This document shows, in pieces, positions 18,902 to 24,341 of a stretch of 64,000 nucleotides of DNA (within the stretch, counting starts at the first letter, position 1; each line of letters opens with the position of its first letter). The position numbers and the translations under genes were made by a program. Where the stretch lies: assembly GCA_027923505.1 (NCBI GenBank), contig BROI01000013.1, positions 806,001-870,000 on the forward strand, in the 5' to 3' direction. The notes under the pieces are model-generated. The model saw only the letters and a list, made by a program, of their open reading frames with translations, was not told the DNA's origin and made no database searches. The DNA comes from Mayamaea pseudoterrestris (lineage: Eukaryota).

Positions 18902-19206
18902 TGTTGCGCGCACAAGATCAATATTCTTGAAAGCTCGGAACAAGACGATGCGAAGAGGTGCTTCTCCGCAAGATCTTGGTGCGCTTGGCCGAAAATGGCC
19001 ATGTCACGCATGTCACGCGTTCGGAAGAAAGATGACGTGGCATGTAACGATGCGAGGCAAGTGGCAGAACGGGCGGACAGGAAAGGAAGAAGAAGGTGGC
19101 GAGAGATCACTTCTTGGAGAAAATAAGTAAAGTGGTTTTATTGACCTGTTCTGCTTAATCATTAGTGTCGCTTCAAGGGCGCGCAAGATATATTCTAGAT
19201 CCAACA
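18902..19206 (+). repeat. 5' LTR of Copia A (start uncertain; 19105-19206 shared with the 3' LTR)
   Basis: TGTTG at 18902 and CCAACA at 19206; the last 102 bp match 24102-24204 apart from one indel. Confidence 0.7.
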
Positions 19207-19233
19207 TTTTCTCCAAGAAGCGAGTGAAAAGAC

Positions 19234-22200
19234 ATGTCTTCGACGAGCAATACCCGACGACAGGAGCGGCGTGAGCGGTGGAGGTGCACCTCCCGCCCGC
19301 CAGCAAGCGAAGGAAACCGACGCAACGTCATTATCGTCGTGGGAATCGTGCTGGGAATCGTTCCGGGAATCAAGGCAACGGTAACAGACTCAACGGACCG
19401 AGTCGTGCGCCGAGTGGAAATTTCAGCGAAGCGAGCCGACGCTCGCTGGATTCATCTACGACTATAACGGTTCGCGCGATCCCGATGGATTCATCCGTAC
19501 GACGAACGAGATCATCACTTTCGTCGGGCGCTCCTACAAGAAATATACCAAGGAGCTGCTCAAGGGCATGCGCAACGTGGAACTGGAGATTCCTGACGAG
19601 CCTGCACGTCCAACGAAGGATGCCGACACGACGGACTCGGACTGGTCCATAATGCTCGAGGAATACAAGGCCGACAAGAAAGAGCATGTCGAGCGCGTGC
19701 GTGTATACCCGACTTCCTCGCTGGTCTCTACGCCGTGTTGCATGGACAATGCACGAGCGTATGAAGGATCGTGTCAAGTCGCACGCCAAGTTCCGAGACG
19801 CCGAGGAGGACACGGACGGAATTAAGTTGCTGGCGATTATCAAGGAGATCTCGCATACGTACGAAGGGCGCTGCAAACTTGTGGATCAAGTCGTGGACAT
19901 TCAAGCTGAGTTGTTCGACGTACTCAAGGAGCGCGCGAAAGCCTGCAGAAATATTACGAAAGCATGGTCACGCTGGCAGACGTGGCGAAGGCGGTTGGCG
20001 TCACGATGCACAACGAGATTGTGGCGTTATGTGTAGATCTCGGTGGTCGCCGTATCATTAAAAAAAAGGAGGATATCAAGGCCGCCGAAGAGCTCGAGCT
20101 TGCGATGCTTTTCGTGCGTGGCGCAACGGGCGAATACGCTGGGTATTGCAAGCACTTGCGCAACTGCTACCTCGACGGGCACGACAACTTCCCGTTGACG
20201 ATCCACGATGCATACAACATCATGCAGCGTCGTGAGCATGCGGATGGAGAAGCCACGTTGCCAACGAACGAGGGCGTGGCGTTTCACACGACTGGTACAG
20301 CGCGTGACCCTCCCAGATGCTGGACCTGTCAACAGGTTGGTCATGTGCAGCGAGACTGTCCTACGAGAACGGAGTCTACGGAGAGTGCGCCGGCTGCAGA
20401 GGCTAGTGGGGCGCAGCACTTCACGCTGGGTAGCGAGGAAGAAAGCGATGACGACGATGAGGTCGGATACATGTTCGCGCAGCCGCCGAAGGTGAACATC
20501 TCGAAGAAGGCTGTGCTCTTGGACAATCAGTCGACAGTGGATCTGTTCTGCAACGCCAAGATGCTGACGAACATTCGCCCGGTGCCAACGTGGATGGTGA
20601 CGGCGCAACGCTGGTACAGTAAGACGAACATGATGGGCGACCTGAGGGCTATGGTCCGGTGTGGTGGTATCCGCAGGGACTGGCGAACATTTTGAGTTTG
20701 GCGCAAGTCCGCAAGAAGTTTACCGTGGAGTATCTCATGCACGGCGTGGATCGTCCAATGTTCGTTGTGGAGAAGCCGGATGGTAAGCAGCGAGAGTTTG
20801 TCGAGACTGACTCTGGGCTGTATGTTTGCGAGAGCTTTTCGAAGGGCAAGCGCAGCGATGTCAAGGATGGAGTGGCGATGTTGACTACGGTAGACGATAA
20901 CCGTACTAACTACACCAATGATGACTATTTACGCGCTGTTAGAGCTAGGGAACTGCAAATCAAAATTGGACGGCCAAGCCTCAAGGATTACCTGCGCATC
21001 GTTACTAGCAATCAGTTGCCGAACTGTCCTGTGACGAAGGCCGACATCCTGGCTGCTGAGCACATCTTTGGACCAGATGTTGGCTCGTTAAAAGGAAAGA
21101 CGACGCGTCGCGCGTCGCATCTGGTGAAGCCTGCGATTGTTGAGCAGCTTCCACCGGCTATCACGAGTCGCTATCGAGACGTTACCTTTGTGCTGACATC
21201 ATGTATATCAACAAAGTCCCTATGTTGGTGACGTTCTCCCGCAGCATTCGTTTTGCTACGGTTGAGGTGATTCAAAACCGTACGCTTCCGGTTATGTTGA
21301 AGGCAATCGAGTCTGTGTTGAAGATTTACGCACGCGGTGGGTTCCGTGTCGTCGCGGCTCTGATGGATGGGGAGTTCGCTCCAATGCTTGGCGCGTTGGC
21401 TGATCTCGGAGTGGCGCTCAATGCGACATCTGAGGATGAACACGTTGGCGAAATTGAACGTTTTATCCGTGTCGTGAAAGAACGGGTGCGCGCGACATAC
21501 AACACGTTGCCATTTAAGCACGTGCCGGCACGCTTGGTTATCGAAATGACGAAGTCTGCCGTGTTTTGCTGAATGCGTTTTCCGAACGAGCGTGGCATTT
21601 CGAAGGATCTCAGTCCACGCACTATTGTGACTGGTCAGACAGTTGACTTTAATCGGCATTGCAAGTATGAATTTGGTCAGTATGTGCAAACGCATGAGTC
21701 GCACAGCAATGACATGCAGGCGCGCACGATCGGTGCGCTGGCTCTGCGCCCGACTGGTAATGTGCAGGGTGGGTTTTATTTCCTCAGTTTGTCTTCGGGC
21801 AAAGTTCTGAATCGTGGGCACGCTACGCCTTTGCCCATGCCTGATGATGTCATTGAGCGCGTGCATCGTCTCGCTCGTCAACAGAAGGCCAATCCGGGCA
21901 TCGTGTTCATGGACCGCCACCGTGTTGCGGAGGCTGCTGAGCCAGTCATGTGGCACGAAGATGACGCCGAGGATGATGATGACTCTGATTATGATGACGA
22001 CGCTTCGCGGTGACGACGACTCTGCCGGCGGAAGCGAAGGAGTGAATGCGACCGATGACGACGACGACGACGACGATGGTGCTGACGGCGCAATCGAAGG
22101 AGTGCCGAACGACGAGGATGGTGAGGCCATTGACGGCGAACTTGACGACGCGCCAGCCGTGGATGATGGCGAAATTGAAGGAGTGCCCGATGAAGGCGAA

Positions 22201-24064
22201 ATTGAAGGAGTGCCAGCTGCTGCAGACGAAGAGGATTTCGATGCGCGCTATGGCCCACGCACTGGTCGGTATGGCCTGCGTGCGCGCAAACCTCGCTCGT
22301 TCGCTCATTTGTTCACGCTCGACGCTGCAGAGGAAGTGTCGGAGCCACTCGTCACGGCACAGATGAATATGCGACAAGGTTTAAAGGCTTTTGGCGATGC
22401 TGGAGTGGAGGCAGTGCGCAAGGAAATGCAGCAGCTACACGACAGGCACGTCATGAAGGCAGTCCCCAATGCACTCTGACTCCGCAGCAGCGCAAGGACG
22501 CTCTGGCGTATTTGATGTTTCTCAAGCGCAAGAGATGCGGGACTGTGAAGGGACGCGGATGCGCGGATGGACGCAAGCAACGAGCATACACTGCAAAGGA
22601 AGACGCAGCATCTCCAACGATAGCGACAGAGGCCATCTTTCTGACAGCTATCATTGACGCTATGGAAGGGCGCGAGGTTGCTGTGGTTGATGTACCGGGT
22701 GCTTTCATGCAAGCGGAAATGGATGAGTTGGTGCACGTTCGTTTCACTGGGAAGATGGTGGAGCTACTGTTGGAAATTGATCGCGAGATGTACGAGCCTT
22801 GCGTCACAATGGAGAATGGCGAGAAAGTCATGTATGTTGAATTACTCATGGCGCTTTATGGTACGCTTCGAGCAGCGCGACTATTCTGGGAGAAGTTGTC
22901 CGCAAAATTGCTTGAGTGGGGCTTCGAGAAGAACCCGTACGATCCGTGTGTGTGCAACAAGATTGTCAATGGGAAGCAAATCACCGGTTGATGTCACGTG
23001 GACGATTTTAATATTTCGCACGTCGACGTGAGCGTAGTGGATGAGTTCATCGCGCAGATGGATGAGGAGTTTGGCAAGGAGACTCCAATGAATAAGTCAC
23101 GCGGAAAAGTGCACGACTACCTCGGCATGGTATTGACTATACTAAGCCTGGAGAAGTAGCAATCAACATGGTTGACTATGTGAAGAACATCCTGCATCAT
23201 GCGCCAGACGACATGGATGGAACGGCAGCTACTCCGGCAGCCAGTCACTTGTTTCAGATATCGGAAAATCCTGTCATGTTGAGCGAAGCGAAGAAGCAGA
23301 TTTTTGTGACGATTGTGATGCAGTGTCTGTATCTGAGTCAGCGAGCGCGACCGGATATTCGCACAGCGATTTCTTTCTTGAGCACGAGGCTGCAGCAGCC
23401 TGACGAAGACGACTATAAGAAGGCTGCAAGAGTGATTAAATATTTACGCGGAAGCGTGGACATGGTGTTGACGCTGAAGGCGGACCAGTCCGGGATAGTC
23501 CAGTGGTGGGTGGATGCGTCGTACGCGGTGCACCCAGACATGAAGGGTCACACTGGTGGAACAATGACACTTGGCCAAGGATCAGTGTACAGTACGTCGG
23601 CTAAACAGAAGTTGGTAACAAGAAGCTCGACGGAGAGCGAAGTTGTGGGAGTTCATGATGTGCTACCGCAGTTGCTGTGGACAGGATATTTTCTGAAGGC
23701 GCAAGGTTTCGGGGTCAAAGACACGAAATTGTATCAAGACAATATGAGTTCAATGCTGTTGGAAAAGAATGGCAGAAGCTCAAGTACAAAGCGCACGCGA
23801 CACATGAATGTTCGGTACTTCTTTGTGAAAGATCGCGTGGCAGCTGGTGAAGTCAACATTGAGCATTGTCCGACCGGAGACATGGTCGCGGATTTCTTCA
23901 CGAAACCATTGCAGGGAGCCCAGTTTGGCAAGCTCCGCAACCTGGTTATGAATCTGGCCTCGAGCAGTAAGTACTACTCGGCCCAAAGGAGTGTGTTGAG
24001 CATGGATGAGAACCCAAACCGAAGCGGCAGCGGTGACGTCACGAAGACGGTCACATTTAAGTAA
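19234..24064 (+). pseudogene. Copia A gag-pol, broken by several frameshifts/stops (decay or sequencing error)
   Basis: Homologous segments are spread over ORFs 19234-, 19686-, 19964-, 20659-, 21201-, 21573-, 21814-, 22512- and 23168-24064; in-frame TGA at 21570-21572. Confidence 0.8.
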
Positions 24065-24204
24065 GCGCGGTAAGCGGCAACCGAAGGAGTGGATCGAGGA
24101 CGATCACTTCTTGGAGAAAATAAGTAAAGTGGTTTTATTGACTCTGTTCTGCTTAATCATTAGTGTCGCTTCAAGGGCGCGCAAGATATATTCTAGATCC
24201 AACA
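23994..24204 (+). repeat. 3' LTR of Copia A
   Basis: TGTTG follows the purine tract and the repeat ends CCAACA; the pol ORF runs into it (stop at 24064). Confidence 0.85.
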
Positions 24205-24341
24205 TACCACACGATGCTTTGCTCGACCATGGAGATTTTGGCAATGCGCAAGGCGCACCATTTTCGAAACGATTTTTACCAGTATAGTCGCTTGTTTGAA
24301 GTCAACATCAAACTAAACATCTGGAACCAAATTCATGTATT

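Follow-up and report, generated by a model that had tools for sequence, protein, structure and literature searches.

A Ty1/Copia LTR retrotransposon of the diatom Mayamaea pseudoterrestris, together with a large clade of related elements, probably primes its reverse transcription with the 5' end of its own RNA, as Tf1 does; we assign this reading a probability of roughly 80%. The element is located in the 64-kb stretch of DNA analyzed here (the window) and contains two complementary arms, one inside the LTR and one at the primer-binding site (PBS) position. The complementarity of the arms, their position, their conservation by compensatory change, and the limits of the LTR can be read directly from the sequences. 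An earlier note on this DNA had proposed a Tf1-like, tRNA-independent Copia element, and this proposal is strongly supported by the covariation of the arms in 52 related loci and also supported by the geometry of the duplex, which is placed at the U5/PBS junction and next to a conserved TCA.

Identity and coding region of the element

Judged by its domains, the element is a Ty1/Copia LTR retrotransposon. Pfam searches detected a CCHC zinc knuckle (zf-CCHC) and the Copia-type reverse transcriptase domain RVT_2 between the two LTR repeats, the latter with an E value of 2.2e-8 in a coding piece of the window. The top protein match of the element is a 1477-aa protein of Mayamaea pseudoterrestris (P0001), in which RVT_2 occupies residues 968 to 1191 (E value of 2.8e-16) and follows the N-terminally located CCHC knuckle at a distance of about 730 aa. 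Since five of the six matched pieces are 96 to 99% identical to P0001 (73% in the N-terminal piece), this protein is, by its sequence, a second, more intact copy of the element in Mayamaea pseudoterrestris. A further protein relative is labeled Nitzschia sp.; together, these two matches make the host a raphid diatom. The best 120 protein matches listed carry diatom names or are unnamed, with nothing else among them. Within the window, no further copy was found.

The positions of the CCHC knuckle and of RVT_2 point to the Copia gene order gag-PR-IN-RT-RH. An rve integrase domain was not found by Pfam in the window pieces or in P0001, and a profile search of PDB sequences for it gave no match; conserved D, D, and E-like motifs in the interval between CCHC and RVT_2 may belong to the integrase. 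The final open reading frame, which follows RVT_2 and comprises 322 aa (23096 to 24064), matched no Pfam family and is taken to be the putative C-terminal part of the polyprotein, including RNase H.

The CCHC and RVT_2 coding sequences of the window copy are scattered across several reading frames (Table 1). Contigs from public sequencing runs contain one or two extra letters compared to the window at 12 listed places within the coding region and at a further 12 that are not listed, the listed ones being 19272, 19296, 19325, 19708, 19754, 19916, 20600 to 20601, 20622, 20643, 22004, and 23134. The extra letters are present in every aligned contig at 5 of the 12 listed places and in most contigs at the others, and the shorter form of the window also has depth in runs X6 and X8 at several of these places. 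The frameshifts are decay common to a minority of copies, an assembly error in a repeat, or both.

The presumed integrase is separated from the reverse transcriptase by an acidic, repetitive stretch (22012 to 22215) composed of 27-nt repeats that code for (D/E)GEIEGVP-like units; relatives have an Asp-rich linker at this place. The frame of the polyprotein extends 71 nt into the 3' LTR (23994 to 24064, approximately the last 23 codons), and the polypurine tract (PPT) and the start of the LTR (AGGAGTG, then TGTTG) double as conserved (H/Q)RSVL codons throughout the clade. Run X2, which bears another organism label, contains a 5045-nt contig matching 19146 to 24143 in circularly permuted form, with the joint leading from 24143 to 19146. 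This contig differs from the window by 34 other letters and 21 gaps, and the upstream flank is essentially uncovered; the element family is therefore present, in nearly identical form, outside this locus and this label.

Table 1. Positions of the features of the Copia element within the window
Feature	Position	Strand	Remarks
Purine-rich left-junction segment	19056..19104	+	49 nt, in inserted block, not LTR sequence
Truncated 5' LTR	19105..19206	+	last 5 nt of U3 (GATCA) and R-U5; ends CCAACA
TCACT initiator-like motif	19107..19111	+	fits diatom TCAH+1W; predicted +1 is C19110
Arm 1, candidate self-primer	19110..19124	+	opening 15 nt of predicted RNA, where R starts
Small bulged hairpin in U5	19165..19184	+	in MFE and centroid structures; similar hairpins in many loci
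Arm 2, candidate primer-binding site	19206..19220	+	perfect complement of arm 1; starts at last A of LTR
gag-pol coding region, Copia element	19235..24064	+	CCHC at about 20315-20362; RVT_2 at about 22533-22943; at least 6 frames in window copy
Polypurine-tract-like AAAGGAGTG	23985..23993	+	directly 5' of 3' LTR; overlaps conserved C-terminal (Q/H)RSVL codons
Complete 3' LTR	23994..24204	+	211 nt, TGTTGAG...CCAACA; U3 23994-24106, R-U5 24107-24204
Arm 1 copy, 3' LTR	24107..24121	+	LTR positions 114-128; GATCA directly before

LTR limits and structure of the insertion

The limits of the LTR were drawn from contigs of four public runs only. A unitig of run X8 covers exactly 23994 to 24204, a unitig of run X6 covers 23994 to 24185, and contigs of run X1 lose their resemblance before 23993 as well as after 24202 and 24208. 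The LTR of the family is therefore 211 nt long. At the matching PPT/LTR boundary, the relatives have CAGGAGTG followed by TGTTGA.

The two LTRs of the window copy form a direct repeat (19105 to 19207 and 24102 to 24205) with 99% identity over 104 columns and one indel, of which the T at 19207/24205 belongs to the flank, as shown by the joint of an empty site in X1. In this empty-site form, position 19055 of an X1 contig is linked to 24205 by 25 other letters, which replace a block of 5149 nt, so that the inserted block corresponds to 19056 to 24204; a second contig skips from 19044 to 24253. The insertion in the window is polymorphic and noncanonical. The TGTTG...CAACA ends and the PPT are present in this copy, which has a truncated 5' LTR and lacks the 5-bp target-site duplication (TGCGA versus TACCA at the two sides). 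Because its 5' LTR has no U3, a target-site duplication is missing, and the frame is broken as assembled, the window copy is probably a dead relic. The earlier note had regarded the segment from 19105 onward as the only block conserved between the two LTRs. The homology does begin at 19105, just 5' of the TCA at 19107 to 19109, but this boundary turned out to be that of a truncated LTR in a noncanonical insertion, and the real U3 comprises 113 nt.

The purine-rich segment at the left junction is possibly filler, and no second copy of it was found in the window or in the related loci. Its interpretation as a diverged U3 was rejected, as the local alignment score of 13 was below the mean of 14.4 obtained with shuffled sequences. 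In the flank, variant letters at about half depth (18639 to 18690 and 18995) suggest two haplotypes.

Complementary arms at the primer-binding position

The 5' LTR ends with ...GATCCAACA at 19206 (...TCCAACA) and is followed by TTTTCTCCAAGAAGCGAGTG; the same 3' stretch is also given as TTTTCTCCAAGAAGCGA. As claimed previously, the LTR thus ends with CCAACA at 19206 and no TGG-type tRNA PBS follows, and the perfect reverse complementarity between 19206 to 19220 and 19110 to 19124 was borne out by an inverted-repeat search. If one mismatch is allowed, 18 nt can pair (19107 to 19124 with 19206 to 19223). When the 15-mer was searched in the 64-kb window with up to two mismatches, three matches were obtained compared to 0.16 expected, namely, both LTR copies on the plus strand and the PBS position on the minus strand. 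Among the 310 AACA sites of the window, all of which were covered by an anchored scan, this pair was the only one. tRNA genes were found neither in the window nor in the 23 related loci scanned.

The many private one-base gaps of the window copy are possible assembly errors and might make one suspect an artefact, yet the explanation of the arms as a chance inverted repeat or a product of assembly is effectively refuted: none of 100 shuffled sequences reached three matches, the same layout recurs in 52 independent contigs (see below), and in four public runs no variant letters are listed at either arm, a missing entry being no proof of identity.

Occurrence of the arms in related elements

When metagenome contigs were scanned with 31 aligned polyproteins, 78 loci were obtained, with 34 to 59% amino acid identity in the best segment. 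Fifty-two of these loci have the same layout, consisting of TCA, an arm of 14 to 16 nt, about 100 nt, (T)CAACA, and the reverse complement of the arm. This number is composed of 47 loci in which both arms were seen and 5 loci (L004, L007, L060, L068, and L071) in which the contig begins within the 5' LTR, so that arm 1 is visible in the 3' LTR copy only. In the 47 loci, one arm follows (T)CA and its perfect reverse complement is located right after (T)CAACA, with a distance between the arms of mostly 86 to 112 nt (range, 34 to 151 nt); one locus, L070, contains two such pairs. No pair was found in the remaining 26 loci, 25 of which are on contigs that do not include the element's 5' end (match to the first 165 residues of P0001 missing, or no match at all). 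The contig of locus L059 starts within the end of the LTR, at TCAAC, and has the same PBS as L048, with no LTR on the contig. Locus L020 has a short, atypical pair of 11 nt and L066 one of 12 nt; both were left out of the counts as probable chance matches, since shuffled sequences give pairs of up to 12 nt. Overall, 3364 AACA sites in the loci gave 50 matches, 48 of them 14 to 16 nt long, whereas 16169 AACA sites in five dinucleotide shuffles gave 5 matches, all of 12 nt or less.

Covariation of the two arms

Including the window, the survey comprised 49 different pairs of 20-nt arms and 37 different 14-mers of arm 1, which differ from each other on average at 7.7 of 14 positions. For the analysis of the duplex, the last A of the LTR was defined as position 0 and the duplex positions were counted from 1 to 14. 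At these positions, 685 of the 686 base pairs of the 49 distinct pairs are of the Watson-Crick type and one is G-U, with no mismatch; this figure is partly circular, as the pairs were found by a search for complementarity, and the independent controls are the shuffles, the slid registers, and RNAalifold. When arms were paired across different loci, they matched at only 6.3 of 14 positions. In a MAFFT alignment of 40 sequences, the arm helix was 98.3% paired compared to 59.6% in shuffles, none of 500 of which reached the observed value, and 211 cells were changed on both sides compared to 52 in the shuffles. Slid registers of the helix were 40 to 51% paired. RNAalifold, without being aided, returned the same 14 pairs, each with compensatory changes. 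Position 0 pairs in 37 of the 49 cases. Position 15 is occupied by a conserved A (46 of 49), for which pairing is possible in only 7; beyond it, pairing is at chance level. The compensatory changes for which the earlier note had recommended looking in relatives were thus found, with 37 variants of arm 1, and complementarity was not lost.

These data bear directly on the possibility that a host tRNA, a half-tRNA, or another small host RNA binds to 19207 to 19224 and that the match to the LTR is secondary. Such a primer would be in line with most Copia elements, which use tRNA-Met, and with some that use half-tRNAs (PMC6317226). A shared host primer would, however, keep the PBS constant, whereas the 37 arm sequences differ at about half of their positions and each is perfectly complementary to its own LTR; furthermore, 44 distinct PBS sequences were listed, and not one begins with TGG. 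The 37 PBS variants therefore cannot be explained by a single host tRNA, and we regard this alternative as extremely unlikely. Self-priming of the Tf1 type can explain them.

Proposed mechanism of self-priming

From this arrangement we infer a transcription start, RNase H cleavage, priming, and primer copying. Transcription would start at about C19110 (+1), from an initiator-like TCA within the LTR, and the first 14 to 16 nt of the RNA (arm 1) would fold back over approximately 100 nt of R-U5 to pair with the PBS (arm 2). The RNase H of the element would, by analogy with Tf1, cut at the 3' end of arm 1, and the freed 3'-OH would prime minus-strand strong-stop DNA from the last base or bases of U5. 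Later, the primer would be copied into the plus strand, thereby regenerating the PBS, and as a consequence the PBS would track arm 1 over generations. Minus-strand synthesis begins at the 3' boundary of the LTR. Since arm 2 starts at this boundary or one base further in every distinct element (last LTR base in 37 of 49, next base in 12 of 49), the 3' end of a cut arm 1 would sit where a primer must.

The type of base pairing is informative as well. In retroviruses, the PBS is rebuilt by copying the tRNA primer into the plus strand, and a primer copied into the PBS in this manner would leave a strict Watson-Crick match without selection on RNA pairing. The arm duplex of the 40 aligned sequences has a single G-U among 590 paired cells, compared to 30 of 179 in a U5 hairpin of the same sequences described below. 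The near-lack of G-U in the arm duplex thus fits templated copying of the primer into the PBS. As an alternative, the arms might form a conserved long-range RNA stem that lies in the 5' leader or joins the PBS region to the R copy at the 3' end and that serves packaging, dimerization, translation control, or cyclization, with another primer being used. The duplex is conserved and closes a structured R-U5 domain holding a recurrent hairpin, and pairing between the 5' and 3' ends would be possible because arm 1 is also present in the 3' LTR. Nevertheless, a purely structural stem should tolerate G-U to the extent that the U5 hairpin does, all 49 distinct elements have arm 2 exactly at the primer position, with 0 to 1 nt to the LTR end, and no further PBS candidate is seen in these sequences; on balance, this explanation appears unlikely. 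A role at the DNA level, such as a hairpin of the strong-stop DNA that aids strand transfer or a signal for recombination or integration, would likewise require strict Watson-Crick pairing. However, arm 1 is internal to the LTR rather than at its ends, and the position at the U5/PBS junction is more simply explained by priming. We know of no precedent for such a role of this kind of complementarity and consider it very unlikely. Self-priming as in Tf1 accordingly remains the reading preferred here.

Predicted transcription start

An initiator-like motif of diatoms, TCAH+1W, has been proposed from Phaeodactylum promoters (PMC4686930). Among the 49 distinct elements, the bases preceding the arm are TCA in 39 and YCA in 44, and TCAHW is present in 39 in the same register. 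The duplex ends exactly at the conserved A of TCA. By its match to the motif, transcription of the window element is predicted to start at about C19110, adjacent to position 19109 named in the earlier note. In the window family, arm 1 begins 113 nt into the 211-nt LTR, that is, at LTR position 114. In the relatives, where the LTR begins with TGTTG after the purine-rich CAGGAGTG, arm 1 is found 89 to 393 nt further in (37 of 54 rows). Both locations fit the place at which R should begin.

In the window copy, homology to the 3' LTR sets in 5 nt before the predicted +1; this does not fix the start site. The use of 19105 as evidence for the start site, on the grounds that conservation begins there, was rejected because this boundary belongs to the truncated LTR. 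Among the contigs, which cannot show RNA starts, there were no poly(A) or poly(T) ends, and none started at the predicted +1.

Folding of the leader and a hairpin in U5

When the RNA from 19109 to 19240 was folded, the arms formed the closing stem in both the minimum free energy and the centroid structure, with an energy of -34.5 kcal/mol and a z score of -2.67; 3 of 200 shuffled sequences folded as well. The small hairpin in U5 has a one-base bulge and is located about 20 to 40 nt upstream of the PBS in many relatives, corresponding to alignment columns 105 to 124. Its cells are paired in 69.6% of cases compared to 28.7 to 45.7% for slid registers, in an alignment that is imperfect and in which one subgroup misfits. 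For Tf1, a U5-IR-like stem-loop is needed according to a title cited in PMC4600332, and the U5 hairpin of the diatom elements may be the counterpart of this U5-IR stem-loop.

Relation to known retrotransposons

To our knowledge, the Tf1 group of Ty3/Gypsy elements is the only one shown to prime itself; within Copia there is no more than a prediction, for one plant lineage. In Tf1, the initial 11 RNA bases anneal to the PBS, and RNase H cleaves between bases 11 and 12 (PMC7175516); Tj1 is drawn with the same arrangement (PMC4600332). The diatom elements share with Tf1/Tf2 of Schizosaccharomyces pombe and the Tf1/sushi group a PBS immediately after the 5' LTR that is complementary to the start of their own RNA, which is predicted in the present case. 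They differ from the Tf1/sushi elements, which are Ty3/Gypsy chromoviruses with a chromodomain and with the integrase downstream of the reverse transcriptase, in that the reverse transcriptase is of the RVT_2 and not of the Ty3/Gypsy type and in that the duplex comprises 14 to 16 bp instead of 11, and unlike in Tf1, self-priming is predicted here from sequence. The element would thus work like Tf1 yet is placed outside the Tf1/sushi family by its reverse transcriptase.

Within the Copia superfamily, two plant families, Houba and Osr-1, have been proposed to prime themselves, and the same is predicted for the TAR lineage, which includes them (PMC6317226). The premise of the earlier note that Copia elements are primed by tRNAs or tRNA halves consequently holds for most of them, but would be too strong if "only" were meant (PMC6317226). 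The diatom elements resemble the TAR lineage in being Copia elements with no predicted tRNA PBS and with predicted self-priming (PMC6317226), although the hosts of TAR are land plants and those of the present elements are diatoms. Elements primed by tRNAs or half-tRNAs, such as Ty1, copia, Osser, and Bianca, share the plan LTR-PBS-gag-pol-PPT-LTR; in these, the PBS corresponds to the 3' end of a host tRNA or to an internal half (PMC6317226), whereas here it varies with the LTR of the element itself. The fungal Copia element GalEa also has no tRNA-type PBS and possesses at this position a self-complementary Conserved Hairpin Site; its authors found no complementary LTR sequence and stated that the Tf1 model does not fit (PMC5445492). 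In contrast to this local palindrome or hairpin, the partner of the diatom arm is located about 100 nt upstream, inside the LTR.

The CoDi elements of Phaeodactylum and Thalassiosira are Copia elements of diatoms, too. Their LTRs have TG/CA ends in 23 of 26 families and lengths of 153 to 844 bp, a range that includes the 211 bp found here, and haplotype-specific insertions have been reported for them (PMC2806351). The main text of that paper mentions neither a tRNA nor a primer-binding site, and its supplements may hold PBS tables. A full-text literature search, which covered main texts, found no report of self-priming in diatom retrotransposons.

In its kind, the diatom Copia clade would therefore be a new lineage of an already known type of self-primer. 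If the reading is true, a large and diverse clade of diatom Copia elements represents a third self-priming lineage, for which the comparative evidence is unusually clean, with 37 primers each matched to its own PBS. In LTRdigest, recognition of the PBS rests on a match to tRNAs; if PBS recognition means a tRNA match, annotation pipelines could discard or misread such elements. A pipeline keeping only LTR candidates with a recognized PBS has been used on a diatom genome (PMC7466962). The clade is also relevant to the old view that self-priming was the original mode of LTR elements (PMC3601003). As the elements are frequent in environmental contigs, the prediction is directly testable in a cultured diatom.

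Truncated and tandem copies

The contigs of L004, L060, and L068 begin 0 to 2 nt after the 3' end of arm 1, as judged by their own 3' LTR copies. These starts may reflect a recurrent left end of 5'-truncated copies or may be the ends of molecules at the predicted RNase H cut. Integrase-independent insertions of HIV-1 mostly show LTR truncations and no target duplications, and truncation has been proposed for the corresponding insertions of Tf1 (PMC11042837). One may speculate, with considerable doubt, that the window copy and these three loci are footprints of self-priming, i.e., cDNAs that extended to the end of an intact or an RNase H-cleaved RNA and were captured without integrase. If so, the missing left U3, the missing target duplication, and the filler DNA of the window copy would be accounted for, and the left ends would show where cleavage occurs in vivo. 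That G-U is almost missing would then mean that the PBS is recopied in each cycle with the LTR arm as the master copy, and self-priming would be old, self-maintaining, and clade-wide in diatom Copia elements, independently of Tf1 and of the plant TAR lineage.

Tandem Tf elements have been described as products of integrase-independent insertion (PMC11042837). Among the related loci, L053 (7240 to 16237) and L070 (1 to 8209) contain tandem element units that share a single LTR. The units of L053 are 92% alike, and those of L070 are only 66% alike yet have the same 14-nt primer/PBS pair.
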